A stretch of 64,000 bases of DNA from Eledone cirrhosa. Its lineage: Eukaryota. The position numbers and the translations under genes are program-made. Location: positions 58,218,001-58,282,000 of the forward strand of contig OZ024742.1 of NCBI GenBank assembly GCA_964016885.1, in the 5' to 3' direction. The notes beneath the pieces were generated by a model. The model did no database searches. It saw only the letters and a program-made list of their open reading frames with translations, and had not been told where the DNA came from. The stretch's first letter is position 1; each line of letters starts with the position of its first letter. This document shows positions 8,770-57,200 of the stretch, piece after piece.

Positions 8770-11373
8770 GCCTTTCGTTACCATATTTCTAACCAAAATA
8801 CACCCCTTATGTGTTTCAATTAATTTCTAACATAATCATAAATTTAGTCTGGTTTCATTAAACAACTAACTTTTTTATTTATCAACATATTAATGTGATT
8901 TTTTGAAGAAAATTTAACGAAAGGTTCTCAACCAATTCTATTCCATAATTTTTGTCTCAAAGTGACTAATTACAGGTAAATACAGGTAAATTCAACAAAA
9001 TATGAAATTATTTAAATTTTGTTCAAATATCGCTATAGAAAATGGGTTATTAGCTAATATTTAATTGGCTATACAGCAAAATTTTACTATAGAAGAGTTG
9101 TGCACATTACTGGATTTATCAGGTGAATTTAAACACACAAAAGACAGGTGTACCATAAAGGTATAAATAAAACGAAAGACTGGAATTTGTCTGAAGAAAA
9201 CTAGAAAACAAAATACACACACACCAACTAGATTAAATAAGCTCTCCCACATACATAGATACGCAGAAATATACAATAATGATTTACAAAAGAAATTAAT
9301 CAAAACTCGTTACTCACCTTACAGGTAAATTAAAATAACAGGTAAATTAAAATTACACAAAGAAACCACCATACCAACAGTTACATTCATCCATCCACTT
9401 ATCGTTACAACCACACATAATATTCCGTTACACAACCTTGCAGAATGCACATTAGAAAGTTGTTACAACAGACCTTCCACTAGGAGCTTTCCTTTTTTGA
9501 TGAAGGCATTCACGACACTGCCTTTTGCGACCCTCAATTTTTTTCTAATTTATGGAGATCAGCTGAATTCAGAGGGAAATCTCTCTGGCAGGCTTTGTTT
9601 TTTCTCCCTACAGTTATTTTTTTTTTAGGAATAACCAGCTCTTAATTGTGTTGCTACATCTGCTCGGAACTGCAGATGGTCGCATCGCTTTCGAGCCGAT
9701 CCCGATTTGGTATATAGTATAAAAGCATTAGTAATACTCATATTTACTCATATATACCAAACAAGGTATCGCCACCATTTATTCCCCAATCTGCCAACTG
9801 GATAATAAGACATCATCTGATTCATCCGATCTACACCAACCATGTACCTGTTATAATCGAGATTCACAAATGGGGTGCCATTTTCATCCACATGTGGCCG
9901 TGCACAGGTAGACAGAAAATTGATCTGCCTCTTATCTCTGTATGCGGTCGCTAGCAAATTTCCTTTCTGCCGTTGAATTATTTCGCCTTTTTTTTTTTTT
10001 TTTTTGCTTTTTTTATATCCAACGGCAGTCTTTTTCTATTAGCGATCACTGTAGCACATGTATGTGTTGCCACAGTATCTAAATTCTCCGCAAGTTTGAC
10101 CGAACTGAAAAACCGGTCAAAAAATAATATACGGTCCTGGTTATGGTATGGAAGTGATAAATTCCAGACCACATCATACCCTAGGCCATGCTGACTTACA
10201 TAATTGTCTCTTTTGCCAGTATAAAATTCAAATCCAGAGCAGTACCCAGTATTCAATTTGCAAATCTTCCAAACTTTGAAACCCCATTTTGTGGGCTTTC
10301 CTGGCATATATTGTCGAAAACGCACTCGGCCTTTATAGCCCACCATACACTCATCGATAGATAAATATCTCCCTGGTTTGTAAATTGTTTTATATGTGTT
10401 TTGAACACAATCAATGAGGGGTCTTATTTTAAATAAGGGATCATAGTTTGGTTCTCCACGTACTGGTGTCCTGCTCGTATCTCTTACATGTAAATACTGC
10501 GTCAATTTTAAAAACCGTGTCCTCGTCATTATACTTGAGACATATTCGTCTCCAAAGGGTTTATCGCTACTCCAGTAATTTGTAATTCTGGGTAGCTTTC
10601 TAATGCCCATAATAATATTTATGGCAAAATAAGCCCTAATTTCATTTAAGCTTGTGGGAAACCACAAACTATCCTTTTTTTCGCTTTGTTTACTTTCAGC
10701 GTAACAGTTTGTTTCCGCCGTAATAATTTCAAACAAGCTCATAGGAAAAAGTAAAAGGAAATAGTCTAAAGCTTTGCTCTCCTGGGATAGACTGTGACTT
10801 GGTTCAGTTTCTTCATAAAAATCACTGAAAGAAACGGTTTTTAAATTTTTACTCCATTCAGGTGCCAATTCATTTTCTTTATCGCTGTCATCAAAGCTCT
10901 CGGATTCACTGTTTTCACTTTCGGAAAATGAAACATCGGATTCATTAACAAATACCACGTGCTTTTTTTTTTCAGTTATAGAGTTAGATTTTTCAAGGTC
11001 TTCAGTAGAAAATCCTTCGAATTCTGACTCGCTGCTTGACTGAATGAAATTGGTATCCATTTTTTGTCAGAATTACAAATTTTCAAAACACAACAGGAAC
11101 AAATTTGGAAAAAAATCTCCCAAAATTCACAGAATTAAAATAACATGTCGACATTTGTCCAAAACTGTAGCTCAATTGTTTACGTAGTATAATCACATGT
11201 TTTTACAAATGTACTAACGAGATTTGCTCTGATATTCTCATTTAAATATGAATGTGTGAGTACGGTCGGTTTTGGGCGGCTTGGTCACATGAACCAAAAT
11301 TTTTTTCTGGCGGCTTGGTCACATGAACCAAAATTTTTTTCTGGCAGCTTTGGCCGGTTTGGTAACGAAAGGA
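8770..11373 (-). mobile_element. piggyBac element 2 (PGBD4-like)
   Basis: TTAA TSDs at 8766-8769 and 11374-11377. TIRs gCCTTTCGTTACCA / TGGTAACGAAAGGa. A 360-aa ORF (11060->9978) has SIDECM and FFDRFF, followed by a frameshifted C-terminal part. Confidence 0.93.
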
Positions 11374-19545: not shown

Positions 19546-19566
19546 CTATCTATCTATCTATCTATC
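19546..19566. repeat. (CTAT)n microsatellite at the head of the LINE array
   Basis: CTATCTATCTATCTATCTATC. (TATC)3 recurs at 26167-26178 and TATCTAT at ~31812. Confidence 0.9.
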
Positions 19567-20535
19567 TTCTCTCTTTAGATTAAAGAAATCTAATCGCTGG
19601 GATAGACACGTGTTAAACTTGCTCGGTAAGTTTTGTTTGAATTTCTTTAGAAATTCGTCATTGTGAACTTTTAATTTTATACCAATTTGTAGAGGGACTG
19701 ACAGGTCAAATTTTGATCTGGTCAGTCCTCCAAAATATCGTGCCCCTCAGGGCAAAAACATCCAAAATATCTTCGAAAATATTTTTTGCAAAACACTTCA
19801 TTTTTTAAAAAATGGCCGAAGCACCTACTTCTTTGTCAAAACAAGAAGATGGGAAGGGAAAGCCATGCCTACTTGACCAGCAGGTAGTAGCAGACATGGA
19901 GAAAGGAAGGCCAACATCATCGCCTCAACATTTAGAAGAGGAACAAGCTTCAGCTGCTTGTAAGCAACTGAACACGCCTGACGTCACAAACGTCACATGT
20001 ATCCACACACAGAAGGAAATATATGTAATAAACACTTCGTTTCGTAAAGAAATGGAAATTCACACAATAAAAAATGAAAATAACAGCCCACAACAGACAC
20101 CAAAAAATACAGAAAATGAAAGAATTTGAAAACACATCCAACAATACCAATCAAAAGGAAAAAAATGTCAACACAAACACCAAAGAAAATACAAACAACA
20201 GTAGCAACAACAACAAGAAAGACAACAGCAAAATTTCTTTTGCTGATACCGTAAAAAATCCGGAAATATTTCAACTTTTGGATTTAACCAATGTGAAACA
20301 AAAGTTGGAAGAAGCTAAATAATATGTAACTTTTGGACCCAATGGGTCATTTAGCATAAATTCACCACAAGAACTAAGGAGAGAGAATGCCCTGAACACG
20401 GTGGTTTTCAGGACAATCTCAAATGCATCCAAAAAACCAGCTCAACTATCTCAGAGTGAGATTGAGGTGGTTTTAAGGAACCACATGGATAACATTTTAT
20501 TTATTCAGAAAGCCAAACTTTTTCGGCAGCATCTC
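19567..20535 (+). mobile_element. Tx1-clade LINE family B, 5' ~970-bp fragment
   Basis: Near-identical to 26179-27147 (constant offset of 6612). Confidence 0.92.
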
Positions 20536-23500
20536 TTTACGATGGACACATGTGCTGAGCTCGTTCGGTAAGTTTCGTTTAAATTTATCCGGAAATTGTG
20601 AACTGTAAAATTTCATTTTTGTACCATTTTGTAGAGGGACTGCCAGGTCAAATTTTGATCTGGTTGGTCTCTCAAAATATTCTGCGCCTTTGGGCGAAAT
20701 AGTATTGTAAACATTTTATCTTTCGAAAAACTTCAAAAAACCCTATTTTGAGAAAAATGGCTGAAGCATCTTCACCATCAATCAAAGAAGGAAAGGGGAA
20801 GTCATACTCACAGCTTCCCCCTGCAGCAGATGCCAAAGGCAGAGGTCAGAGAGAGGAAGAATTGTCTTCACCTGTTGACCGACCACTAGATGTAGCCACA
20901 ACTATACAAGAAACTGAAAACAACAACAACGACAACAACAGCAACAATAAAGACAACAAAAACAACAACAACACAAACGTCACAAGTATCCACACACCAA
21001 ACGAGAAAGACAACAACAACAACAAAGAGGAAAACAACTCAAACGACGAGAAACAAAACAATACAAACACCAACAACGAAAACAAAATATCTTTTGCACA
21101 AACGGCTAAATTATCAGTCACGTATGTGCTTGAAGATATTTCAAAAGCAAAAGAAATGCTGGAAAAAGCCAAGAAATATGTATCTTTTGGCGAAAACGGT
21201 TCGTTTTCTATAAATTCACCTCCAGAACTATAAAAACAGACGGAATTACGAACTGTCGTATTCCGTACAATTTTAAATAAAACAAAAAAACCAGCACAAC
21301 CATCTCAAGCTGAAATTCAGTTAGTACTGAAAGAAGCGATGAGAGACATCACTTTCATACAAAAGGATAAACTCTATGGGAGTCTATCCATATTGATGAA
21401 AGACGAATTTGCGGCGAAAAAATACTCTGTGTCGCCAATTCGTTCCACACACTACACCTTCTTCCCCACCTACATGGGTAAAAAAACCCAGAGGATATGG
21501 ATAACCACCATCACCCCAAACATAAACTACTGGTGGTTACTAACCGGTTTCCTCAATTTAGACGAGGACAACCTCATTTCAATAGGGTAGGGAAGGCATC
21601 CGGCAACGCGTTCAGTGGAACGAGCATCGAAGTTCTGACCCAAATAAGGCCAGAACGTATCGCCCAAATCCCTAAGCACGTCATGCTGGATGACCGTACC
21701 CACCTCAACATTATTGTGGAGGGTAGGCGTCCCTCCTGTTACCTCTGTGGCAATAGAGGTCACCTGAGGGCTGCCTGTCCCCAGCTCACACAGAAAAAAA
21801 ACACTGCTACCAACACCACCCCAACAACAACAACAACAACAACCAACAACAGCAACAACAACAACAAACACGTGAAAAAACAACACAATACTGTCCCACC
21901 CAATCCCTCCCCACCCAAAACAAATACAAAAACACACACCGCAAACACTACCAGAAAACATACCCCTCCCACCCAACAAGGAAGACGAACCCCTTTCGTC
22001 GCAAGACGAAAAAGATCCCTTCCAACAAGTAAAAAGAAAGAAGAGGAGACGCACCACAGACACACATGTTAACTTTAACCCTCCCCAAGAGAAAACAAAC
22101 TACACGCAAACCACTCCTCCCTGTCACACAACACTAACTGCTACACAAAAAAAGACCTTACAATATACATACATGAACACAGACAACAAAGAACTACTGA
22201 AAACAATTTCAGCAAACCCTTCGGTCCAAACTGAAGGGCCTAACTTTAAAACTGCTGTGGGACTACCTCATTTAAAAATGATTAAAGTCCCAATGAACTT
22301 TTACAAAACACTGAAGATAAATTTCACGGAGGACGTGGGCACCCCCTGCGCCAAACCAATCAACCGCGTCCTCCTAAAAAATTTCACCCCCCCACCCCAA
22401 CAACACACTGATGCCCCTTCACTTCCACAAACCACCACCCCACCCAACAACCCATCCCCAACCAGCATGGAAATTGAGTGGCCCGTTTCCCGGGACGCAG
22501 AGAGGTAAGTGCCTTTTCTCCTTACCACCAACATGGCTGTGCTAAGAGTAGGGTGTCTAAATGCGGGTGGCCTGGGCTCATCTTGGAAGCAAGCAATGCT
22601 TCTAAATGACCTCAGGTCACAATCTATGAATGTGATGGTTATCTGCGAGGCCCGGATCAGCAACATGCGGCAGCTAGCCCCCACCTTTGACGACTTTGAG
22701 ATGCACGCATCTCTCTGTCAGCCCGGAGGTGGGGGTGGGGTTGTCGTTCTGCTGCAAAAACATCTGGGCCTTGCAACAGATAGTTCACTTGGACCCAGGG
22801 GGTCGACTGGTGGTGCTGGACCTTGGCAGTGGTGAAGGTAGAGCCTTTAGGCTGGTAGCCGCATATGCCCCTTTTGGGACAGAGCGGCCCGACTTTTTCC
22901 AGCGTCTGGAGTCTTTTCTAGGGACGTCCCGTTCCCTGCTTTTAGTGGGGGACTGGAATGGTATCCTGGATGCACGTTGGGACTATGCAGGGGCATGTCC
23001 CGATAGAGAGGGGTGCAACAGCCTCAAGGGGTTACTCGGCCGATTTGACCTGGCCGATAGATTTCGACTAGATTTTCCGATGGTGCCAACCTGGTCTTGG
23101 TCAAATCGCAGCGGATCATCTAGGTCGTACCTAGATAGGTTTTTAGTTAGAAATAAGGACAGGGACTTTTTAAGTTGTCCAGAAATGCTCATGGTTGGCT
23201 ATTCAGACCACAAGTTGGCGACCTGCATGGTCAACCTTGATAGAACGCATAGACAGGGCCCCGGTTACTGGAAGCTCACCTTGTCCTTGCCGGCAAGTAG
23301 AGCTTACAGGGATCGGATTAGTACGTTAGTTAAGGAACGGTTGACTGGAGCGATCGTCAACAGCAGGTGGTGGGTATCTCTAAAGAGAGAGATTAGAGTA
23401 GTCTCGATAGAATTTAGTAAGGTTCTAGCTGCGGATAGGAATAGGAAGGAAAGGGAGCTAATAGATAGAGTAGAAGAGGCAATTAGAAGCGGCGACGTGG

Positions 23501-26166
23501 CCAGAGTGCTAGCGTCGAGAACGGCTTTGAGCCAGTTTTTCAACGCGAAGCACGAAGGCTGCGTTGTCCGAAGTAAAATACGTGCTCTAGGGAACGAGGG
23601 GACCAAAGCTGTTAGCTGGGCCCGCGTGACAGAGGCCAACAGTGGAACTAAATCCACCATCCGGTCTTTGCGAGACCTGGACGGACGGGCGATTCTTGAG
23701 CCTAAGCAGATGTGTGAGGCCTTTCAAAGGCACTTTGCCTGACTGTTCGGGAGGGGCGGGGAGCCGGTTGGGAATATGGACTTCGGTCCATACCTCGACG
23801 GCCTGCCGCGTCTCTCGGACAGGGAGGCGAAGTCCTGCGAGGAGCCGATTTCAGCCGCTGAGATAGAGGACGTGCTGAGCCAATGCGGCAAACGCAAATC
23901 CCCGGGTCTCGATGGTCTTCCTTACGAATTATATCTAGCTATGCCGGACTTGTTCCCCGATCTCCTCGAGGCGGTCTACTGCAACTGGCAACAGAACGGG
24001 AGAATTCCCTGTACTGTGAGGAAAGACGAGAACAAGGGGGACGAAATAAGTAACTTCAGGCCCATAACTCTGCTAAATACAGAGTTACAGATTTTGGCCA
24101 AGGTGCTAGCAAACAGGTTGGCGCTCGTCGTGGGCAACCTGGTGGGAGATGCGCAGACATGCGCTATCCCGTCCAGGTCCATCCATGACAACCTCCACCT
24201 CATGCGATACATCATAGAGAGGGTTGGGAACGAACCCGGCTTTGGTGGGGCTCTGATCAACTTGGATCAATCTAAGGCGTTCGATAGGGTCGACCATGGT
24301 TACCTTGATGCGGTGCTAGCGGCGGCAGGCTTCGGACCCGATCACTGCTATGCACAGCGGCCGCATCTGCTCTAGGGTCAAGGTGAACGGCTACCTCTCG
24401 GAGCCGTTCAAAATCGCGCGGTCCATCCGACAAGGGTGCCCTCTCTCTCCTCCCTTCTGTATGTGTTGACTCTCGAGCCACTACTGCGGAAGTTGGAGTT
24501 GTTGCAGGGCATCCCTTTGGAACCGGGATTGCGGAAAGCGGTGTCGGCCTACGCCGATGACGTGACAGTAATGGTGTCGACGGCCTCCGAAATCGAGGCG
24601 GTCGGCACCTTACTGGAGGAGTACGAAAGGTTCACAGGGGCTAAGCTGAACCGGGACAAGTCGATCGGTTTGCAACTCGGCACGTGGAGGGGCAGACCGA
24701 TGCCCTCCGATGGCGTCGTCGGACGCTGGACGGAGGGCCCGGTGAAGTTGCTCGGGGTCGGGTTCGGACCGGACCTCCAGGTGGAGAAAAACTGGGCGGA
24801 GGTTACGAACAGGGTGTTTGCACTGACCCAGAAGTGGGCCAGTTGCAAACTATCCCTGAAAGGTCGGGCGGAGGTGGCGAACACCTATATAGCGTCCGTC
24901 ATCTACTACCGCCTGACCGTAGTGCCTTGCCCAAGGGAAACCCTCGCCAAGATGGAGCGCGCGCTCTTCCAATTCCTTTGGAAGAGGCGGGCTCCTATGG
25001 TGAGGAGATCCATCTGCTGTCAACACCCTTCGAAAGGAGGGCTGGGGATGCCGTGGCTAATGATGCGTAAACACGCATTAAGGCTACAGCACCTCTACGT
25101 ATTCCTCACCGGTCAACCGGTGTGGGCCTCGTTTGTGAGACGAACCTTTCCCAGACTCGTCTCACTCACAGAGCTGCAATCCTGGGTCAAGCAAAGACCT
25201 AGAAAACTGGGCGCCTGGCACACTGAGTGTGCCCAGGCACTCACCGCCCTCTGGCAGGCGGATCCGGTTATCAGTGGAGACTCCACCGCAACATTCTATA
25301 GAGGGCTGGTACGCAGCAGGTGCGACGGCGCCCTCGGAGAAGCCCTAGACATGGAGGAGGACGAACTGGCCAGCCTGTTCGGTAGGACATTCAGCCCGGG
25401 ACCTCTGGACAACTTCCAGAAGTCCCTGGCCTGGCAGTGCTACCAAGGGGCTCTACCCGTTCAAGAAAAGCTCTACAGACACGGGCGCCCGGGTAGGGAC
25501 CCCGCCAAAAAGATCTGTCCCAGATGCGTGTGCGACGAGGAAACCGTTGCACACGCAATGGTACACTGCTCGGGCGTAGCCGATCTGTGGGGCTATGTCG
25601 AACAACTGCTGTCAAGGGTGGGACCGATCCGGTTGACCACCGAGTCTATTGTAATGATCAAGCCGCCTCCCCCCTTCAAAGATGAAGGAGAGGCGGTGTT
25701 TCTGTGCGTAATAGCCATGGTGAACGCGTCTGAAAGGACTGAGGTCAGGCACCTTTCTCTCTGGCCAACAACTGGTCCGTTTCTTCCGATATCATTTCGG
25801 AAGAAGGATCAGGATGGAGAGAGAGGTGCTCCACCCCAGTCGTTTTTATGAAAGGTGGGTGAAATGGCGAGAATGGCCCGTGTGAATGGGCCTTCTCTTT
25901 ACATAAGCCTGTAGGTTGAAAGGAGGAAGGAACGAGGGAGCACCCCCTCTCTGTGCTCCTGAGGAAAAGGGTTGCACACTTTTTTCGGGGGTGTGTGCGA
26001 CCCCCCCCCTATCGAGGATTTTGTTATAAATTTTATTTTTTGTTATATTTTATTTTATTTTTATATATTGTTATTGCCTCCTCCTTATTGAGGACGCCTT
26101 TTTGTGTAAACTCCCCCCTTTGTACTTGTCCCACTTTTGATACCCTGGTGGCAAATAAAAGAAACA
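20533..26166 (+). mobile_element. Tx1-clade (L1 group) LINE family A, full length, decayed
   Basis: ORF1 ~20757-22508 has a CCHC knuckle (CYLCGNRGHLRAAC). ORF2 ~22533-25914 has APE (GDWN, SYLDRF, SDH), RT (KSPGLDG, DQSKAFDRV, YADDV) and C-terminal CPRC..ETVAH..HC. Ends with AATAAA. Confidence 0.93.
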
Positions 26167-26178
26167 TATCTATCTATC

Positions 26179-29100
26179 TTCTCTCTTTAGATTAAAGAAA
26201 TCTAATCGCTGGGATGGACACGTGTTAAACTTGCTCGGTAAGTTTTGTTTGAATTTCTTTAGAAATTCATCATTGTGAACTTTTAATTTTATACCAATTT
26301 GTAGAGGGACTGACAGGTCAAATTTTGATCTGGTCAGTCCTCCAAAATATCGTGCCCCTCAGGGCAAAAACATCCAAAATATCTTCGAAAATATTTTTTG
26401 CAAAACACTTCATTTTTTAAAAAATGGCCGAAGCACCTACTTCTTTGTCAAAACAAGAAGATGGGAAGGGAAAGCCATGCCTACTTGACCAGCAGGTAGT
26501 AGCAGACATGGAGAAAGGAAGGCCAACATCATCGCCTCAACATTTAGAAGAGGAACAAGCTTCAGCTGCTTGTAAGCAACTGAACACGCCTGACGTCACA
26601 AACGTCACATGTATCCACACACAGAAGGAAATATATGTAATAAACACTTCCTTTCGTAAAGAAATGGAAATTCACACAACAAAAAATGAAAATAACAGCC
26701 CACAACAGACACCAAAAAATACAGAAAATGAAAAAAATTGAAAACACATCCAACAATACCAATCAAAAGGAAAAAAATGTCAACACAAACACCAAAGAAA
26801 ATACAAACAACAGTGACAACAACAACAAGAAAGACAACAGCAAAATTTCTTTTGCTGATACCGTAAAAAAACCGGAAATATTTCAACTTCTGGATTTAAC
26901 CAATGTGAAACAAAAGTTGGAAGAAGCTAAACAATATGTGACTTTTGGACCCAATGGGTCATTTAGCATAAATTCACCACAAGAACTAAGGAGAGAGAAT
27001 GCCCTGAACACGGTGGTTTTCAGGACAATCTCAAATGCATCCAAAAAACCAGCTCAACTATCTCAGAGTGAGATTGAGGTGGTTTTAAGGAACCACATGG
27101 ATAACATTTTATTCATTCAGAAAGCCAAACTTTTTCGGCAGCATCTCGGTGCTAATGAAAAACAACATAACAGCACAAAAATATTCCACCGCGCCCATTG
27201 TGTCCACCCATTTTACATTTTTCCATACATACATGGGAAAAAGAACACAAAAAATAAAAATTACATCTATAAGACCCAAAGTAGATATTTGGTGGATACT
27301 TTATGGCCTAATTGACTTTGAACAAGACATTTTGATCTCAGTAGGAAAATCCTCCAGGGATATATTTACTGGGACTAGCGTCGAAATTCTGGTGCAGATG
27401 AGCCCAGAACGCATAATGAAAATCCCACAAAGAGTACCTCTGGATGGACAGACCTACATAAACATTTCGGTTGAGGGTAGACGGCCCGCATGTTACCACT
27501 GCACAAGCAGAGGTCACCTAAGGGCTGCCTGTCCTCAATTGACAAAAAGAAAACCACTTTTACCAACACCACCACCACCACTACGACAACAAGAAAAAAA
27601 CAACAGAGAACACTACCCCCCCCCCCCCAAAAAAAAACAAATACAAAAACACACACAGACACTACAGAACCCCAAAACATACCCCTACCCATCAACACGG
27701 ATGAGGAACCCCTATCGACGGCACCCAGCGGCGATGAGGAGGTACCCTTCCTACCCGTGAAAAGAAAAAAAAGCACCGCATGAACAAAAACGAAACAAAC
27801 GCACAAACACCAGCACAAACAAAACACCCACAACAAAGAGAAAACACACGCAGGAACCACAGACAAAAACAACACAGGAAAAGTACACATACACTTACAT
27901 AAACAAAGAAAATAGAACACTGATGGAGACCATCAGAAACAACCCTTTGGTCAAAACCGAAGGGAAAACTTTGGATAGCTCCAACAAAAAAAAAAATGAA
28001 CCTGAAACTGATCAGGGTCCTTATAGGAACTTATAGATACCTAAAAGAAACATTTGTAGAGGACATGGGGGAATTCGTGCGTGAAACCAATCAACCGCGT
28101 CCTCTTAAAAGACCTCCCCACCACAGGCACCGCCACCCAAATCATCCCCATCCCACCAGACACCACCACCCCAAGGAATTTGTTCAGCCTGGTCCCCAGG
28201 AGACGAAGAGGTGAGTGATTTTTTTTCCTCTTCTTAACTTTTCAGCACCAACATGGCCAATATAAGAGTTGGATGTGTGAATGTACGCGGCCTGGGGATG
28301 CCCTGGAAACAGGTCAAACTCTTAAACGACCTCAGGTCGCACAGTATGGATGTAGTAGCCATTTGCGAGTCCAGGATCCACAGCGAGTGACAACTGGCCC
28401 CCATCTTCAACGACTTTGAGATCTACGCATCTCTGTCAGCCGGGAGGTGGGGGTGCCGTTTTGCTGCGGAAACACCTGGACCTCGTAACACAGACGGTAC
28501 ATCTGGACCCGGAGGGTCGACTGGTGGTCCTAGACGTTGACAGTAGTGAAGGTGGCGCCTTCAGGCTGGTGGCCGCATATGCCCCATCCGGGACACCGTG
28601 GCCAGACTTCTTCAAACGTCTAGAGACTTTTCTGGGAACATCCCGCTCCCTGCTGTTAGGGGGGACTGGAATGGAATCCTAGATGCACGTTGGGACTATG
28701 TGGGAGCATGTCCCAATAGAGGGGGTGTAACAGCCTCAAACAGTTAATCGGCCGATTTGACCTTGTCGATAGATATCGACTAGATTTTCCGACTGTGCCA
28801 CTGTGGGCGTGGACTAATCGTAGCGGAACATCCAGATCGTACCTAGATAGGGTTCTAGTTAGAAAGAAGGATAGGGACATGTTAAGCTGTCCACAAATGT
28901 TCATGGTTGCCTATTCAGATCACAAATTAGTGACCTGCTTAGTCAACCTTGACAAAACCCATAGACAGGGACCCGGCTACTGGAAGCTGGACTTGTCGTT
29001 ACCGACCTGCAAAGCCTACAGTAGATGGATTAGCACTTTAGTTAAGCAGCACTTGACGGGGGCCATTGTCAACAACAGATGGTGGTACTCTCTCAAGAGG

Positions 29101-31810
29101 GTAGTTAGATTAAACTCAATAGGTTTTAGTAAAGAATTAGTGTTAGATAGAAATAAGACCGAAAAGGAACTGGTAAAGTAGAAGAGGCACTTAAGAGTGG
29201 CAACGTAGCCAGCGTGCTAGCGACGAGAACGGCCTTGGACCAATTCTTCGACGCAAAGCATGAAGGCTGCGTTATCAGAAGCAAAATACGTGCTCTGGGA
29301 AACGAGGGAGCCAAAGCTGTTAGCTGGGCCCCGAGTGACGGAGGCGAAAGTGGCAAAAAGCCCACGATTCGGTCTTTGAAGGATCAAGACGGATGCGTGA
29401 TACGTGAGCCGAAGCAAAAGTGCGCAGCCTTTCAGCAGCACTTTGCTCAACTGTTCGGGCAGGGAGGCGCGCCGGGAGGGGCTATGGATTTTGATTCATA
29501 CCTCGACGGCCTACCGCGACTCTCGGACAGCGAGACAAAATTCTGCAAAAGGCCGATTTCGGCCGAGATAGGTGACGCGCTCAGCCAATGCGGCAAACGC
29601 AAATCTCCAGGTCTCGACGGTCTGCCCTACAAATTTTACGTAGCAATGCCGGACTTGTTCTCCGGTTTCCTGGAAGCGGTCTACTGCAACTGGCAGCAGA
29701 ACGAGAGAATTCCCAGTTCTGTGACCAAGGGCGTAATCACGTTAGTCAAGAAGGACGAGAACAAGGGGGATGACATAGGCAACTTCCGGCCCATAACTCT
29801 GCTATACACAGAGTTACAGATTTTGGCCAAGGTGTTGGCAAAGAGGCTGGCGCTTGTCGTCGAAAACCTGGTGGGAGAAGCGCAGATATGCGCAATCCCG
29901 ACCAGGTCCATACAAGACAACCTCCACCTCATGCGATACATCATAGAGGGTAGGGTGTAAACCCGGCTTCGGTGGAGCCCTGATCAACTTGGATCAGTCT
30001 AAGGCTTTCGATAGGGTTGACCATCGTTACCTGGATGCGGTGCTTGAGGCGGCAGTCTTCGGTCCCGTGTTCAGGGGCTGGATTGCTGCAATGCACAACA
30101 GCAACATCTGCTCAAGGGTCAAGGTGAACGGCTACCTCTCGGAGCCGTTCCATATCACGCGATCCATTCGACAGGGATGCCCTCTCTCCTCCCTTCTGTA
30201 CGTACTGACTCTCGAGTCACTACTGCGGAAGTTGGAACTTTTGCAGGGCATCCCTTTGGAACTGGGACTGCGAAAAGCGGCGGCGGCCTACGCCGCCGAC
30301 GTATCAGTAATGGTGTCGAGCACCTCGCAAATCGGGGAGATCGGCACCTTACTGGAGGAATACGAAAGGTTCACAGGAGCGAAGCTGAACCGGGACAAAT
30401 CCGTCGGTTTGCAACTCGGAACGTGGAGAGGCAAACCGATGCCTTCCGATGACGTTGTCGGATGCTGGACGGAAGGACCGGTAAAGCTGTTAGGGGTCTG
30501 GTTTGGTCCTGACCTCCAGGTGGAGAAGAACTGGAACGAGGTGACGCCCAAACTATCCTTGAAAGGTCGAGCGGAGGTGGCGAACACTTTTATAGTGTCC
30601 GTCATCTACTACCGCTTGACCGTTGTGCCTTGTCCAGCCAAAATGCTCACCAAAATGGAGTGCGCGCTCTTCCAATTCCTTTGGAAGAAACGGGCTCCTT
30701 TGGTGAGAAGATCCATCTGCTGCCAATACCCTTCAAACGGAGGGCTGGGGATGCCGTGGCTGATGATACGCAAACACGCACTCAGACTGCGGCACCTCCA
30801 CGTATTCCTCACCAGACAACCGGTGTGGGCCCCGTTCGTGAGGCGAGCCTTCCCACGACTCGTCTCGCTGACCGAGCTACAGTCCTGGGTCAAGCAAAGA
30901 CCGAGGAAAATGGGCGACAGGCACATCGAATCCTCTCAGGCGCTCAGTCCTCTGGCAAACGGACCCGGCGGTCAGTGGAGACTCCACTTCGACATTCTAT
31001 AGAGGGTTGATCCGCAGCAAGTGCGACGACACGCTCGGAGAAACTCTAGGAGTAGAGGAGGACGAACTGGCCAGTCTGTTCGGTAGGACCTTCCGCCCAG
31101 GACCAATGGACAACTTCCAAAAGTCCCTGGCCTGGCAGTGCTACCGAACAGCTCTACCAGTTCGAGACAAGCTCTACAGACATGGGCGCCCGGGTAGGGA
31201 CCCTTCGAAAAAGATCTGTCCGAGATGCGTGCGCGACGAGGAAACCGTCGCACACGCATTTGTACACTATTGTCGCGGGTGGGACCAATCCAGTTGACCA
31301 CCGAGCCCATTGTCATGATCAAACCGCCACCCTCCTTCAAAAACGAGGGAGATGCGGTTTTCCTATGTGTTAGGCTATGGTGAAAGAGGTTATATGGTGG
31401 ATGAGGTTAAAAGGGCTGAGTCAGACACCTTTCCCTCCGGCGAGCAACTGATTCGTTTTTCAAATATCCTTTTGGAAGAAGAATCAGGATGGAGAGAGAG
31501 GTGCTGTATCCCAGCAAATTTTATAAAAGGTGGGTGAATGTGGCAAAGATGGCCCGAGTGGTTGGGCCTTCTCTCTATATCAGCCTGTAGGTTGAGAAAA
31601 AAGAGGAAGAGAGGGAGTACTCACTCTTGGTGCTCCTGGAGATGAGGGTTGTACATTTTTTCGGGGTGTGTACAACCTCTGTGTAACACCTCCCCCCCTA
31701 TTGGGGATTTCAATTGTTATTTGTTATTGTATTAATAGTTTTATTTTCATATACCTGTATGTAAACTCCCCATTTGTATGTCCCCTTCTTTTGTGATATA
31801 ATAAAGAAAT
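26179..31810 (+). mobile_element. Tx1-clade LINE family B, full length, decayed
   Basis: ORF1 26424-28214 (CYHCTSRGHLRAAC). ORF2 28253-31590 is APE-RT with the catalytic motif mutated to YAADV. Ends AATAAAGAAA-TTTATCTAT. Confidence 0.93.
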
Positions 31811-48241: not shown

Positions 48242-51200
48242 TGTAGCGGCCCCTTATGGCTGTGACTCAGCACGTATAGGAGTTGCGTCCCTTTACGACG
48301 GTCGTAACTCAGCACGTATAGGAGTTACGTCCCATTGGCAGATTCATGTACTAAATAGAGTTGCGTCCCCCTGGGCACTATATATTTGAGGACAAGAACA
48401 CCTGAGACCGTGTCAAGAGATGACTCCTGTCTCACTTCCTTCGCCCGCAAGAAGAACACCGGCAGCCTAAAGAAATACTTGAACACCGCCAAGAGAAGAT
48501 TTCTGTTCTTCTCTACACACTCCAGTCTGGGAGTTGTGACCAACTGAACATCTACATGTGGGAACAATTATTTATATTAATTTATTTGACTTCTGTGAAG
48601 TAAAACCATGTCACAACACTCACCTGCAATTATTGTCATTCTTTGATAATTTATATACACTGATACCAATATCCTAAATTGGTGACCCCAATGTGATTTA
48701 AAAAAAAAAAAAAAAAGAATGGGAAATAGTACCATGTGTATATAAAAAAAACGAGAAAAAAAAACGTTTAATACAGAACAACACACTTGATTCTGATATG
48801 GCTGTATTGACCGATCTAAACATATTTCTCTGTAACACTTAACATCAAACTCTTCATATGTGCAAAACGAACACACAAAGTTATTTACACACAAACAAAT
48901 AGCGATTGTATGAACGGTTTTTCTTTTTTTTTCTCCTTTTCTTCTTTTCTCTGGCTAAAAATGTTGAGGATGACAAGATGGCGGCTTTCTTCTCCATCAA
49001 TAGTGTTTTTGGCGCGAACTACTCCGCCATGTTGGTTTTAGTTTTAAGTTCCCTGCCTATACCTTATTAATGACATCGCTCGGTTAGTTGTTCCTTTGCA
49101 TATTGTCCCGGATGCATTCTTTTTCCTGACCAGTTGTTTGACAGAAAAATAAGCGATTTTGTTTTCCTTTTCTGTTGTGTTGGAGACATTTATCCAAATG
49201 GAGACGATTTCTTTTTTTGGCAAATTACCTACGTACACGGGCGACGTAAGGTTATGGTTCGCCCAACTCGAACCATTTTTCGAGGCGAACAGAATTGACG
49301 AGGCACAACAACATCCTCTGGTCCTTAGTGCAATTCCACCAGCACTTATCCCAGCGATTAAGGACCTGGTGTTAGAGACACCCACCGACGCGACGTACGA
49401 GTCTCTGAAGGCTGAAATACTCAGCTGGACTGCACACTCTGCAGAAAAAAGATTTAGGGCTCTGGTCCATCTGGAGCATATAGGTGATGGCACCCCATCG
49501 AACCTCCTAAGGCGAATGAAGGACCTAACGGAGGGGTCAGTAGCGGAAACTGCCATGCTGAAGCAGTTGTTCTCGCGCCTACCGACCAATGTACAGGCAA
49601 TTTTGGCCCCCATTAGCGATACTTGCACGGTGGATCAGCTTGCCGCCTCTGCGGACAAAGTTTTCAAAGTTACGGGTGCTGGAAGCAGCGAAGCCCTTGC
49701 CGCTGTTTGCCAACCAGCTCAGACCACACCTGGCCATGCCATCTGCGCGGCAGCTCCTATAGACAGCTCAGCTATTATGGCGATGCAGAAGGCCATTCAG
49801 GAACTCACCCTGGAGCTCCAGAAGATGAAGGCCTGGTGTGGTGCCCGTTCGCGCCCCCGCAGACGCGGGAGATCTCAATCTTTTAGGCGTCGTTCTAAGT
49901 CACCAGCTTCAGCTTTATACTGGTACCATGAGCGATTTGCTGAGAGCGCGAACCACTGCGTGCAACCTTGCTCGTTTCATAAGGCGGGAAACGCCAGAGA
50001 GGTCCGCTGACGGGGGCAGTTGACCTCAACATAAAGCCACCAAACCGCCATTTCTTCAATAAGGACCTTATGTCCGTAGAGTCATCCGTTACTCTGCAGG
50101 CAGTTAATCACTCGTCTATAAACACGTACGGGCAAATCTCGCTTCCTCTCAAATTCCCAAATCTTTGTAGGGATTTTAGGTGGATTTTTACGGTTGCCGA
50201 TTTCCCATACCCTATCTTAGGAGCGATTTCCTCCACAGCTTCTCTTTAACTGTGGACGTCCATGGCCAACGCCTGGTGGATGACATCACCGGTTTTTCAA
50301 GTCATGGCCGGAAAGCCGATGCTCCAACAGTCAGCCCCATGTAGTAAGACGCCTTACGCCCCCCGTCGGATAATGGACCAGGCCTAGTTGTCTCCCCTGG
50401 TTGAGAACACTATTTAAGTAAGCAGCAGTATTACTTTCTCAGACAAGCCACGGAGACAGCCTTTGTACCACGAAACAGTAGACAGTTTTGGACCACGAGA
50501 TCACACAGATGTCAATACACTGAACTCCTATGCCGAAGCCACAAGGATAGTGTTGGCCGAGCACTGGCTCATAACTGATTTCACTTTACTGGTCCCGTCA
50601 CATTGGTGACCCAGACGTGGCGTTACATTGGTGACCCACGACAATTGTAATACGTTGCCTTCATTTCAACTGATCATGTCTATATTGGTATGTTGTTTCA
50701 TTTGTAATATAACAAACACATAATAGACAAAATAAACATCCTTATTTACATTGTTGAATAGAACTCTCATTGTGGTTATTATCTTGTCTACACACACACC
50801 CACTCACTTGTTATAATCCTATGGAGTACCTATCCTCTCACTTACGAAAATGGTAAATAGACGAGGGACTTTCCCTCACGTCTATATTGATAAACTATCC
50901 AACAAGGATTCATTACCATACTGGTAACCCCAACTAAAGAATTTTACGCAGCCTTTTATTCATTTGAACTTAAATATTTCACTGTTATTACCACATTGCC
51001 AACCTTTTCGCAACTTACAAAAATACACAAAAAAAAAAAAGACAGAAATAATAATGTGTTTATACGGTATTGACAAAGTATACAAAAAACCAGCCAAAAA
51101 TGTTTCCAATATGGCGTTGCTTTTCTCCGTTTTGCAATTTTCCCACCAGGACAGGGACATTTTGAATTGCTTGTGTGCGTTCCATATTTGATCAAGAGAA

Positions 51201-54200
51201 AAACTGTTTTTATGAACATTACTGCCCCGCTGGGGATACACATGCCTTACTTTTTTCCTAAGGGATTTTTAGCCACAGGCTACCTATTGTTGATATCCAA
51301 CGTGGATATATTCTAAAAGAAACATTTTTTTTTTCTCTTTTTCTCGGGTTATATGCTTTGGCTTGCCCGTTGAAGCAACACAAGGGCACAGACGTTGAAG
51401 GAATATATTTTTTTTTTAATATATATATGTACTTTATGTATTTTTGCTATTTCCTAATGTTTTGAATATCTGTTTCTTTTTGACCTTTGATTTTTTTACC
51501 ATTTTGGGTGTTTACTTTTCCCTGTACGAGGGAACATTAATTGCTGTTTCTATTTTTTTTTAGTCGTTTCACAATGAATACGCCACATTTGCCCGCCTTT
51601 AACGGAAACCCTAAGCTGTGGTTCGGCCAGCTACAGGCGTATTTTACGATCTGTAAGACCGAGTCTGACCAGCGCCTTCGTGTCTTGATTAGCGGACTTC
51701 CCCCTAATTTAGCAGATTCAGTTCAAGACCTAATTACAGACCCCTCCCCCCTCTGACTTAACGTATGATTCTTTAAAAGGCGAGATCTTGAGAAGGAACT
51801 GTAAATCGGTAGAGAGTCGTTTTCGGTCATTGATCGAGGACGAACGACTAGGTGACAGAACCCCTACCGCTTTTCTCCGGCATTTGCGGGAATTGAGTGA
51901 TTCCCAAGATCAGGATAGCCCTTTCCTGAAACAATTGTTCTTCTCTCGCCTACCTCAAGAAGTACAGGCGATCCTAGCCCATATGCTAGAGTTAAACACA
52001 CTCGACCACATTGCTGTCTGCCGACAAAATAGTAGAAGTGACGAGAGAGACACTTCGAAGCAAAAGTAGGTTGCTGCCTCTTCTCTTCCTCAATCACGCT
52101 CATCAGCGAGTGGTGAGAAGTTGGTCAAAACTATGGAAGCCATGACTTGTCAAATGGCGGAGTTGTGCCAGGAACTCAGGTCTTTTGGACGGCAGAGGAG
52201 CCGCTCACGATCTTATTCAACTCCTCGCCGCCGTAGCCGTTCCAAATCTTCAAATCCATCATATTGTTATTACCATGACAAATATGGCGACAAAGCCGCC
52301 CGTTGTAGGCCTCCTTGTGCTTACAAGGGAAACGACGACCAGAGTCACTAACGGCGGATAGTGCGCTCTGCGAAACATCATCCAACCGCCACTTTTTTAT
52401 TGAGGACCTGCTATCAGGTAAAGCCTTTCTGGTTGACACAGGTGCAGCTTGTTCAATATGGCCTGTGTTGTATGAAGGAGACTCCCCCGAGTCACCTATT
52501 GAGTTGCAGGCAGTAAATTGTTCGCAGATTCGAACCTTCGGACAAATCTCGCTACCTTTGCAGTTCCGTAATCTGCGGTGCGAGTTTAAATGGATTTTTG
52601 CTGTCGCTGCCTTGCCGTATCCAATTCTAGGCGCGGATTTTCTTCACCATTTTTCATTGACGGTGGACCTCCGAAGTAAACGCCTAATTGATGACATCAC
52701 TGGTTTTTCTGTTGTTGGCAAGGCAGCAGAAGTTCCAACGGTTAGCCCGACCTTTTTTCTTGCTAACACCGGCGATACTTACCATGCGTTGTTGAACTCG
52801 TTCCCGCAACTGACTCAGGGAAATTTTCGAGTTGATGAGCCAACTCATACCACGGAGCACTTCATAACTACAACTGGTGCTCCCGTTTTTTCTCGTCCTC
52901 GTCACTTGCCTCCAGACAAACTCAAAGCAGCACGATCAGAGTTTGATCCTATGCTGCAGTTGGGGATTATTCGTCCGTCCACAAGCTCGTGGGCGTCCCC
53001 ATTACACATGGTACCGAAAGCGACTGGCGATTGGAGACCTACTGGAGATTATCGAAGCTTAAATTCAATAACGGAACCGGACCGTTATCCTATCCCTCAT
53101 CTGCAAGACATTCCAAAAACGGCTATAGTTACGCCATTTGGGTCATTTGAGTTTTTGACCATGCTGTTCGGATTAAGGAATGCCACTAGTACGTTTCAGC
53201 GGTTTATGGATGAGGTTACTCGTGGCCTCGATTTCGTCTATACATATATTGACGACCTGCTCATTGCTAGTTCTTCTCAAGAACAACATACGCACCATTT
53301 AAATCTTCTTTTCCGCCGATTGAAGGCGTATAACGTGCAGATTAATGCACCCAAATGTGTTTTGGGTGCTGAGTCACTGACTTTATTGGGTCACGTCATC
53401 GATGCTGATGGTATTCGACCCCGGCCTGAGCGAGTTAAGGTCATAGAGGATTTGCCTCCACCGACCTCACTACGTCAGTTACGCCAGTTCTTAGGCCTGA
53501 TCAATTTTTATAGGCGTTTCGTGCCAAATTGTGCGAGATTGCTTTTCTCCCTGACGGAAATTTTAAAAAATTGTCGGAAGAAGAATACAGACATTTCTTT
53601 AACCGAGACTCAACTTGCTGATTTTCAGCACGCCAAAACTGCTTTGGCTAATGCTTCTTTACTGGCTCACCCGGTACCCGGTGCAAAGCTAACGCTTTGT
53701 GTTGATGCATCGGATATCGCTCTGGGCGCAGTGCTACAACAAAACATCAATGGTTACCAGCAACCGCTGGAGTTTTTTTCCAGAAAAATGAAACCTGCTG
53801 AGACGCGCTACAGCACCTTTGGAAGGGAGCTTTTAGCCATCTATTTAGCCGTGAAACATTTTTCACATATGCTAGAGGGTAGACTATTTACTATCCTCAC
53901 TGACCATAAACCATTAACTTTTGCGTTGAGAGCGAAGGCTGATAAATACTCGCCCAGAGAAACGAGGCACCTTGATTTCATCTCGCAATATACGAACGAT
54001 ATCCAACACATTCCGGGTTCACTGAATACAGCGGCCGATGCTTTGTCCCGCTTACCCGTGACAGCGATCTCGTCACCCCCTGACATAGATCTGACTCGTT
54101 TGGCTGCGGATCAGCCTCCCCTTGAGTCATTGGATGTTACATCGCCTGAGTTTGCGAATTGCGAGATGAAATACTTGCCTCTGTCGACTGCAGTTGGCCA

Positions 54201-57200
54201 AATTCTCTGCGACGTCTTTTTGGACGTGCCTAGGCCCTTCGTTCCAGAGAATCATCGTCGGACCGTGTTTCTGGCATTACATAGTTTCTCACATCCAGGA
54301 TCTTCTGCCACAGTAAAGCTCATATCAGCTAGATTTTTCTGGCCAAATATGAGGCGTGAAATTGCTGCTTGGTGCCGTTCCTGCGTCACTTGCCAGAAAT
54401 CAAAGTTCCATCGACACGTCAAGGCTCCCTGGGTACCTTTACTAACCCAGATGCGCGTTTTTCGCACATTCACATTGATATAGTGGGACCTTGGCCTGTC
54501 AGCGACGGTTATTCTTATCTGCTGACTATAGTTGACCGTTTTTCGAGATGGCCTGATGCCATCCCCTTGAAAAACATCACCGCTGAGACAACAGCGCGTG
54601 CTCTTGTGTCTGGATGGATCTCTCGTTATGGAGTTCCATCCACAGTAACTACCGACCGTGGACGACAGTTCGAGTCGAGCCTTTTCCTCGAACTGTCATT
54701 TCCACCACCAGTGCTCCAGTGTTTTCGCGTCCACGCCACTTACCGGCGAAAGAATTAAAGGCAGCACTGTCCGAGTTCGACCATATGCTGCAGCTGGCCA
54801 TTATTCACCCATCTACGAGCCCTTGGGCTTTACCGTTACACACGATGCCTAAGACTTCCGGCGACTGGAGATCCACTGGGGATTATAGAAGGTTAAATGC
54901 TATGACCGTCCCGGATAGGTATCCCATTCCCCATCTCCAGGATTTCGCATCTTCATTGCAGGGGTGTAAGATTTTCTCAAAACTAGATTTAGTGCGAGCC
55001 TACCACCAAATTCCGGTCAGGAAGGAGGATATTCCGAAAACGGCGATTACAACTCTTTTCGGATCCTTCGAATTTTTTACCATGCCTTTCGGACTCAAGA
55101 ACACCGCTAGCACTTTTCAGCGGTTCATAGACGAGGTCACTCGTGGTCTGGACTTCGTTTATGCTTACATAGACGATATTCTTGTCGTTAATTCCTCTCC
55201 GGAAGAGCATATGCGCCACATGCATCTCTTATTTCGGTGACTTCAGGATTACCGCGTTCGTGTGAATCCTGCAAAGTGTGTTTTCGGTTCCACTTCGCTA
55301 AATTTTTCAGGCCACCTCATCGACGCCGAAGGTATTAGGCCGCTCCCTCAGCGAGTTCAAGCCAAACGGGATTTACCTCCGCCTACTACACTTCACCAGT
55401 TGTGTCACTTCTTAGGCCTAATCAATTTCTATAGGCGTTTCGTTCCTCATTGTGCTAATTTACTATCTTCCCTTACTGACATTTTGAAAAATCGTTGTAA
55501 GAAGAATGAGAATATTTCCTTGACACAAGGACAGCTTCAAGATTTCCAGACTGCCAAGACAGCACTCGCTAGTTCATCTTTGCTAGCCCACCCAGTACCA
55601 GAGGCCAAGCTTTCGCTTTGTGTTGATGCATCTGATACCGCTGTGGGAGCAGTTTTACAGCAGTTCAACGCTGAAAACCAACAACCTTTGGTATTTTTCT
55701 CAAGGAAGCTGAAACCAGCAGAAACGCGTTACAGCACGTTTGGGTGGGAATTATTAGCCATATATCTGTCGGTGAAACAATTCTCTCATATTCTTGAGGG
55801 GAGAAATTTTACTGTTTTAACCGACCACAAACCTCTGACCTTCTCTTTGAGGGCTAAAGCCGCAAGATATTCGCCCAGAGAGACAAGGCACCTGGACTAC
55901 GTTTCACAATATACAAATGATATCCAGCACATTGCTGGCTCGCATAACATAGCTGCAGACGCATTGTCACGTTTGCCAATCAGCTCCATCTCGTCATCCC
56001 AGGAGATCGACTTAGGTCGTTTAGCTGCAGACCATCCTGCACTCCAATCGTTGGATACTCTTTCTGCTGAATTTGCGACTTGCATCTTCAAATATCTGCC
56101 CTTGTTGACCACCGACAGGCAGATTCTATGTGATTTATCTACGGATTCACTACGACCACTTCTTCCTGAGATTCACCGTCGAATTGTGTTCCTTGCTTTG
56201 CACAGCATTTCTCACCCAGGAATTTCTGCCACAGTAAAGCTTATAACAGCTAGATTTTTCTAGCCCTATATGAGGCAAGAAATTACTGTATGGTGCCGTT
56301 CCTGCACACTGTCAGAGATCTAAAATACAGACACATCCGGACTCCACTTGGTGGAGGGATATTGCCTCGTGGACACATGTATTCGTCAGAAACGATGCGG
56401 TTACTCCACCCCTCACACAACCGTACTCTGGACCCTACCGTGTGTTAGCACGTACAGACAAACATTTCACTGTAGACATTAACGGGTCCAGAGAGACAAT
56501 TTCGGTGGATAGACTAAAAAGGGCATACAATGACGCTCATACACCCGAGCCACAAATACCCCAATCTTTCTCTCTTGTGCATACACCTGCTGCTTTTGCC
56601 CCACCTTCACCTACATACAAGACCACGACCCATTCCTGTCGAAGAGTCCAGTGGCCCAAAAAACTCTGCCAAACTGTTTTCATGTGAACTGGCTACTGGA
56701 GCCTTATTTTTTTTGTGTTTTTCTCTTTATTGTATTACCATGTACCTTCTCATTACCATTTCATGCCCGTGCTGGGAGCCCATGCTTGTGGGTTCGCTAC
56801 AGTTACCTTCGGGCCTTTCGCCTAGCATCTGGAGGAGGGTACTGTAGCGGTCCCTTACAGCTGTGACTCAGCATGTTTAGGAGTTGCATCTCTTTACGAT
56901 GGTCGTAACACAGCACGTATAGGAGTTACGTTCCTTTGCGACGGGCGCGACTCCCATTGGCAGATTCATGTACTAAATGGAATTGCGTCCCCCTGGGGAC
57001 TATATATTTGAGGACTATCAAGGCATAACCCTCTCTCGCATCCTGAACTTCGAAGGGACAAGAAGAACACCTGAGACCTTGTCAAGAGATGACTCCTGTC
57101 TCACTTCCTTCGCCCGCAAGAAGAAGAACACCAGCAGCCTAAAGAAATACTTGAACACCTCCAAGAGAAGAATTCTGTTCTTCTCTACACACTCCAGTCT

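Follow-up and report, generated by a model that had tools for sequence, protein, structure and literature searches.

Tx1-clade retrotransposons with microsatellite targets, such as Kibi and Koshi (PMC4494074), have two open reading frames (ORFs), encode an APE endonuclease and a reverse transcriptase (RT) and insert into microsatellites. L1-Tx1 families are described as recently active in Octopus vulgaris (available text of PMC13282606). The present analysis concerns a tandem pair of full-length long interspersed nuclear element (LINE) copies in a 64,000-nucleotide stretch of Eledone cirrhosa DNA, hereafter the window (assembly GCA_964016885.1, contig OZ024742.1, positions 58,218,001 to 58,282,000, forward strand). 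Copy A lies at approximately 20536-26166 of the window and copy B at approximately 26213-31810, with a mutual likeness of 73%. Each comprises a knuckle-bearing ORF1 and an endonuclease-RT ORF2. Their domains and microsatellite targets (here CTAT) suggest that the elements fit the Tx1/L1 group, and homolog searches retrieved no named Tx1 reference. The consensus of a 5' splice site at the ORF1 stop is kept across divergent lineages of these elements, and this donor lies in a predicted long-range helix that joins the start of ORF2 to its end. The available text on Kibi and Koshi (PMC4494074) mentions neither a donor at the ORF1 stop nor pairing around ORF2.

Parts of this arrangement are found in other described systems. 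In gag splicing of the Arabidopsis Ty1/Copia element EVD (PMC5580714, as far as its available text goes) a conserved 5' donor is located near the end of the structural gene and is more conserved than the acceptor. A predicted excess of structural protein is a further likeness, and in EVD U1 also acts on termination. EVD, a long terminal repeat (LTR) element, has a short intron and shows premature termination, whereas in the LINEs described here the intron would comprise all 3.4 kb of ORF2 and the donor lies in a predicted long-range helix. At most, the present elements may work like EVD, of which they are not members.

Human L1 has splice sites inside the LINE, and its spliced RNA has left retrotransposed fossils in the form of SpORF2 and SpIREs (available parts of PMC2896524 and PMC5860796). 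There SpIREs are dead ends, the donor is in the 5' untranslated region (UTR) and ORF1 can be dropped. In the present elements the donor overlaps the ORF1 stop, and chimeras between elements, which later amplified, make up the fossils. In SART1, as summarized in the accessible part of a review (PMC3894237), the RNA is bicistronic and its structure where ORF1 meets ORF2 influences the initiation of ORF2, an effect that is predicted here. SART1 has an overlapping stop and start and a local downstream structure (PMC3894237), whereas the spacer of 21-43 nucleotides (nt) found here is predicted to pair with a partner 3.4 kb away. None of the available accounts of EVD, SpORF2, SpIREs and SART1 describes a start-to-stop clamp that encloses a donor at the ORF1 stop. 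A literature search at the level of listings, with subscription journals, Repbase reports and supplements outside its scope, likewise returned no description of such an arrangement. In the available text of the review (PMC3894237) it is posed as an open question how a single LINE RNA yields ample ORF1 protein and little ORF2 protein. A donor inside a 5'-3' clamp would be a concrete and mutable mechanism for the ORF1/ORF2 ratio. In these elements the donor and the complementarity are real in the sequence, and their action at the RNA level is predicted.

Splice donor at the ORF1 stop

The genome (3.0 Gb) contains many copies of A/B-type elements. A genome search with an ORF2-start pattern gave 3866 copies. 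Forty copies were taken from the first 100 listed, chosen for variant coverage, and together with A and B were sorted into 12 groups. The distant family X was added via its 3' end; 39 copies were taken and 32 of them reach the ORF2 start. Family-level counts for A and B refer to the 30 best copies of each family. Fourfold-site identity was 0.53 between A and X and 0.50 between A and F.

A preliminary description of the window had placed a consensus donor over the ORF1 stop of both families, and this was correct in all letters. The A donor is at 22505-22510 with the stop TAA within it and the B donor is at 28211-28216 with the stop TGA within it, both on the plus strand. The ORF1 stop chosen is the true one, as the long knuckle-bearing ORF1 frames of related copies (L101-103, L112, L118, L119 and L131) end in the same frame; on the same evidence an ORF1 ending in another frame was rejected. 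Poly-C slippage scrambles the ORF1 frame in A and B copies. The poly-C tracts near the end of ORF1 (window 22340-22400 and homologous places) are very variable in length, and the frame is shifted in most A copies.

The donor was present in 30/30 A copies and its GT was intact in 29/30 B copies. All 12 lineage groups carried GT with G at +5 and T at +6. It was also found in 32/32 copies of family X, the ORF1 end of which is unlike that of A. The ORF1 stop is four bases later in F and B2, at donor +6 to +8, which shows that the donor is more than a stop codon. The 8-letter donor motif occurs seven times on the two strands of the window, with two of the seven at the ORF1 stops of A and B. These two hits are not independent because A and B are homologous. 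Among 41 distant relatives from metagenome contigs none carried the donor (0/41). A non-stop donor variant was considered as a family mark and rejected, since seven of its nine matches carry a stop. Together with the chimeric joins described below, this conservation suggests that the donor is probably a working 5' splice site.

Predicted helix between the ends of ORF2

For each window copy the best partner of the junction in the whole element was the ORF2 stop with the start of the 3'UTR. The helix energy was -72.1 kcal/mol in A and -63.1 kcal/mol in B (z -6.1 and -6.2, respectively; 0/500 shuffles), and in the window copies the sense strand was 8-10 kcal/mol better than the antisense. The predicted helix is ~60 nt long, its 5' strand is formed by the pyrimidine tract and the ORF2 start, and its strands are 3.4 kb apart. 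The 5' strand of A (22486-22546) comprises the exon end, the donor, a pyrimidine spacer without an acceptor AG and the ORF2 start. The 3' strand of A (25898-25967) comprises the ORF2 end, the stop, a purine tract and a partial anti-donor. These two segments pair in a fold of the last 3.8 kb of A, with the ORF1 stop bulged and the ORF2 AUG opposite the ORF2 stop. In B pairing is predicted between 28198-28272 and 31566-31641, the latter with the full donor complement. Both strands are again on the plus strand of the window. The preliminary description had pointed to the pyrimidine tract and the conserved ORF2 start as splice signals. Both are present as it stated and are better explained by long-range pairing and start-codon context.

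Values of z from -5 to -7.5 were obtained in 13/14 groups, the exception being a single copy. None of the distant relatives scored among the 41 reached z -2; those without a stop or flank were given no z. The donor and the pairing are local to this LINE group, since the distant relatives show neither. Matched junction and 3'-end partners were preferred (permutation p 7e-5, a value inflated by the relatedness of the lineages). The X junction gave -73 with its own 3' end compared to -36 to -56 with the ends of other lineages. In F and X, whose fourfold-site identity to A is ~50%, the helix is formed anew by other letters. The 3' strand carries a near-complete complement of its own donor in B, D and X and a partial one in A, and changes on both sides are seen opposite donor +3 and +4. 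The complementarity of the two strands changes in step between lineages. In five single copies (L074, L091, L113, L126 and L128) the junction and the 3' end are apparently of different lineages.

Chimeric subfamilies were sought with B exon ends followed by a base other than G. This gave 41 matches, of which 30 were examined as loci. Eleven of the 30 run directly into the ORF1 end of family E, four run into an existing B/E chimera and 15 carry point changes or small indels. The four joins into a chimera enter 76 nt upstream of the existing B/E seam. Four further loci were examined and three were joins to E. In window coordinates the B side of the seam of both chimeric subfamilies falls between 28210 and 28211, directly before the donor. 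CAG precedes both entry points in the parent elements. The 5' parts of the two seam types come from different B subtypes, which indicates two separate fusion events. Chimeric copies, some of them full length, are spread over several contigs and differ in their flanks, and an E-type ORF2 was found in 19/19 examined. As judged from these copies, the chimeras are two inter-element fusions at the same B donor that later amplified.

With free-gap placement 11/11 B-to-E joins fell at the donor, which is one of 29 possible joins with microhomology of at least 2 nt. Two other AG-ending sites served as control positions and gave 0 joins in 15 and 7 matches, respectively, where the second required only a following pyrimidine. 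The exact donor joins to YAG comprise two events preserved as DNA fossils, both in the B branch and after CAG, with 2-nt microhomology at the seams. If read as splice products, the chimeras would be fossil evidence of donor splicing, and stronger evidence than conservation, which the stop codon and the pairing partly explain. Tandem copies are common in this genome, the window included, and therefore read-through into a neighbour followed by splicing would be a simple path to such joins.

Proposed use of the donor and competing explanations

The reading put forward here is that the conserved donor at the ORF1 stop, gated by the helix between ORF2 start and stop, removes ORF2 to give an ORF1-only mRNA, and that ORF2 is made from its own AUG on unspliced RNA. 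We place the probability of this reading at about 0.5. The likely use of the donor would be to cut ORF2 out rather than to switch ORF2 on. Unspliced RNA would be the template for copying and for ORF2 translation. The closed helix would hide the donor as well as the AUG and the stop of ORF2, which would preserve the full-length RNA and limit ORF2 output. A ribosome that terminates at the end of ORF1 would open the helix and restart 21-43 nt downstream. L1 uses termination-reinitiation. The AAC ahead of the ATG is kept in A, B and X, all three of which were identified independently of that anchor, as would be predicted for an ORF2 that starts from its own AUG. When the helix is open the donor would join an AG at the end of ORF2, with a restored stop one to four codons further on. 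An AG that gives a stop in the donor phase within this distance is present at the end of ORF2 in every lineage. The candidate acceptor AGs are at 25906-25907 and 25913-25914 in A and at 31582-31583 and 31589-31590 in B. In the phase-1 lineage F, where the upstream AG is missing, the terminal TAG is used. In the phase-2 lineage X the upstream AG is present and the stop is TAA.

A wider version is offered tentatively, as a possibility. In it the whole RT gene would be a switchable intron, a co-evolving clamp with an anti-donor would choose between ORF1-only mRNA and template, and splicing into tandem neighbours would make ORF1-swapped subfamilies. If true, splicing between tandem copies would be a new route of ORF1 exchange between LINE lineages.

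A number of results weigh against the proposed reading, in addition to the inflated p value for matched partners. Change on both sides was seen in only 5/19 register-fixed pairs, with three single-copy groups left out of the pair counts. The helix was part of the global minimum-energy fold in only 7/14 copies, and a local hairpin over the donor was a common competing fold. In most lineages donor +2 to +4 can be attributed to the stop codon, and +1, +5 and +6 are paired positions. The candidate far acceptors, AAG in A and B and GAG in X, are weak sites that codons and pairing also explain. The chimera search was anchored at the donor and gave only two events, both with 2-nt microhomology at the seam, so that template switching is possible. 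No donor-joined chimera was found in A/E/H or D/G. A search for retrocopies with ORF2 removed to either ORF2-end AG found none, with four near-matches against seven in the control and no donor join among them. The exon ends examined (14 with a non-G base and 16 with G but not T) were likewise all point changes, compared to 1488 intact A/E/H exon ends. Cis preference could hide ORF2-less retrocopies.

Other searches for spliced copies were also negative. The probe for an A exon end followed by GT and a base other than A gave no spliced copy, and the 14 non-G exon ends included no in-frame 42-nt cut of A ending at an AG within ORF2. No GT..AG skip was present at junctions among 15 shown of 320 joints, which come from contigs of one sample, of a kind not recorded, and carry no weight. 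One locus (L143, G000:C28 near 35.94 Mb) has an internal ORF2 deletion that ends just before the ORF2 stop and does not start at the donor.

The main rival accepts the helix and holds that the donor binds the U1 small nuclear ribonucleoprotein and is seldom spliced. The donor would then control 3' end formation or export, and the chimeras would be rare accidents of a live donor. We regard this as rather unlikely, though it suits several of the results: the donor is conserved and the acceptors are weak and variable, ORF2-less retrocopies were not found, and if the chimeras arose from read-through RNA the donor skipped the ORF2-end AGs. U1 also acts against premature termination in the EVD Copia element (available text of PMC5580714). 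However, there is no AATAAA inside ORF2 of either window copy and therefore little for U1 to suppress, and the stop-restoring AGs follow the donor phase in F and X.

It is less probable still, and in our view doubtful, that the donor look-alike is a by-product of an Arg codon, a stop and paired bases. Selection would then act only on the helix and the start context, and the chimeras would be template switches. The Arg-stop ending of most lineages, the pairing of donor +1, +5 and +6 in most lineages, the microhomology at both chimera seams and the occurrence of non-stop donor variants as single-copy changes are all consistent with such a by-product. It fits poorly with the persistence of the donor while most helix letters turn over between A, F and X, and with F, which keeps the donor out of frame with its own stop. 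The location of both seams at one position, with none at the two control positions, also argues against it.

The preliminary description had proposed that ORF2 is expressed via an acceptor just ahead of it, by micro-intron fusion to ORF1 or by splicing from the 5'UTR with ORF1 skipped, or else by readthrough of the ORF1 stop. This is now very unlikely and for A is largely refuted. Its details of the two window copies were accurate. In B, cutting 28211-28245 fuses ORF1 to ORF2 in frame, with the AG at 28244-28245 and the ATG at 28253. In A the AG reads AC, and ORF2 (ATG at 22533) is in frame behind a single TAA. The B family has the AG ahead of ORF2 in 30/30 copies, and its donor-to-AG segment is 37 nt in most of them, compared to 35 nt in the window copy. 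The family check that the description had set beforehand for A went against it, as 0/30 A copies carried the AG. Such an AG between donor and ATG is confined to B, B2 and M (3/14 groups, 97-98% alike) and to 6/40 of the copies picked by ORF2 start, leaving 11/14 groups without it. The donor phase differs in B2, where the same cut would be out of frame. A segment of 37 nt also leaves little room for a spliceosome.

Retrocopies gave a similar answer. Micro-intron-fused B retrocopies numbered 0, compared to 525 B junctions that were unspliced. Copies would have been expected, since an RNA with ORF1 fused to ORF2 would encode its own RT. No retrocopy joining a 5'UTR donor to ORF2 was found, the one match being due to chance. 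Human L1 makes an ORF2-only spliced RNA (PMC2896524, available text) and leaves ~2% spliced copies among full-length ones (PMC5860796, available text). Readthrough likewise fails as a general route. The donor-to-ORF2 spacer is a multiple of three in 5/14 groups (A, E, D, B2 and one single-copy group), which have ORF2 in frame behind one stop, and in the remaining 9/14 ORF2 is out of frame. On these counts none of the three routes, micro-intron fusion, ORF1 skipping or readthrough, is supported as a general mechanism. What stands of the splice-signal interpretation is a conserved and probably working donor; its pairing with an acceptor just before ORF2 does not. A role for the AG of B as a paired base matching a B-specific 3' change was also considered and is not supported, as this AG is unpaired in the dominant fold.

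That the complementarity is a DNA-level relic of an old inverted duplication with no RNA function can practically be set aside, since it has persisted in F and X despite a wholesale change of sequence, and drift at ~50% fourfold-site identity would erase it, even though antisense duplexes are also strong and only ~8-14 kcal/mol weaker.

Layout of the two copies and other features

Both window copies are full length and lie on the plus strand, A at 20536-26166 and B at 26213-31810, and both ORFs are broken in each. ORF1 of A, with a CCHC knuckle, extends from 20757 to 22508, and ORF1 of B, which is of the alpha type, from 26424 to 28214. The zf-CCHC match in ORF1 was just under the cut-off, and the CCHC motif was present in long ORF1 frames. 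ORF2 of A (22533-25914) encodes an APE endonuclease, RT and zf-RVT, and intact copies encode 1145 amino acids (aa). ORF2 of B is at 28253-31590. Pfam matches in ORF2 were RVT_1, zf-RVT and Exo_endo_phos, the last below the cut-off in the broken window copy, and the same domains were found in homologs. The insertion target appears to be a repeat, as most printed 5' and 3' ends lie in CTAT repeats when judged by eye and with no background count.

A 67-nt intron-like GT..AG segment is present in the 5'UTR of A (20568-20634), and one of the same length is seen in the 5'UTR of B (26238-26304). Its splicing is putative: 0 spliced and 257 unspliced copies of the A/E/B-alpha type were found. Four unlike 5'UTR types were seen, each with a GT..AG segment of 60-68 nt, an ordinary intron size (the two window segments, L115-L118 and L131-L133). 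ORF1 and 5'UTR types are common to different ORF2 lineages.

The first 981 bp of B is duplicated across A with 98.7% identity (window 19555-20535 and 26167-27147), as if A had inserted in B with a very long duplication or tandem recombination had occurred. Tandem arrays of ~970-bp units precede a full-length copy at L265, L266 and L271 (G000:C1 near 211.9 and 212.4 Mb). These units were considered as spliced copies and rejected, as they consist of flank and the first 103 nt of the element. Elsewhere in the window, at 49153-56263 and 9978-11066, remnants of an LTR-type pol (RT, RNase H, integrase zinc finger and DUF7041) and a DDE_Tnp_1_7 transposase fragment were observed.

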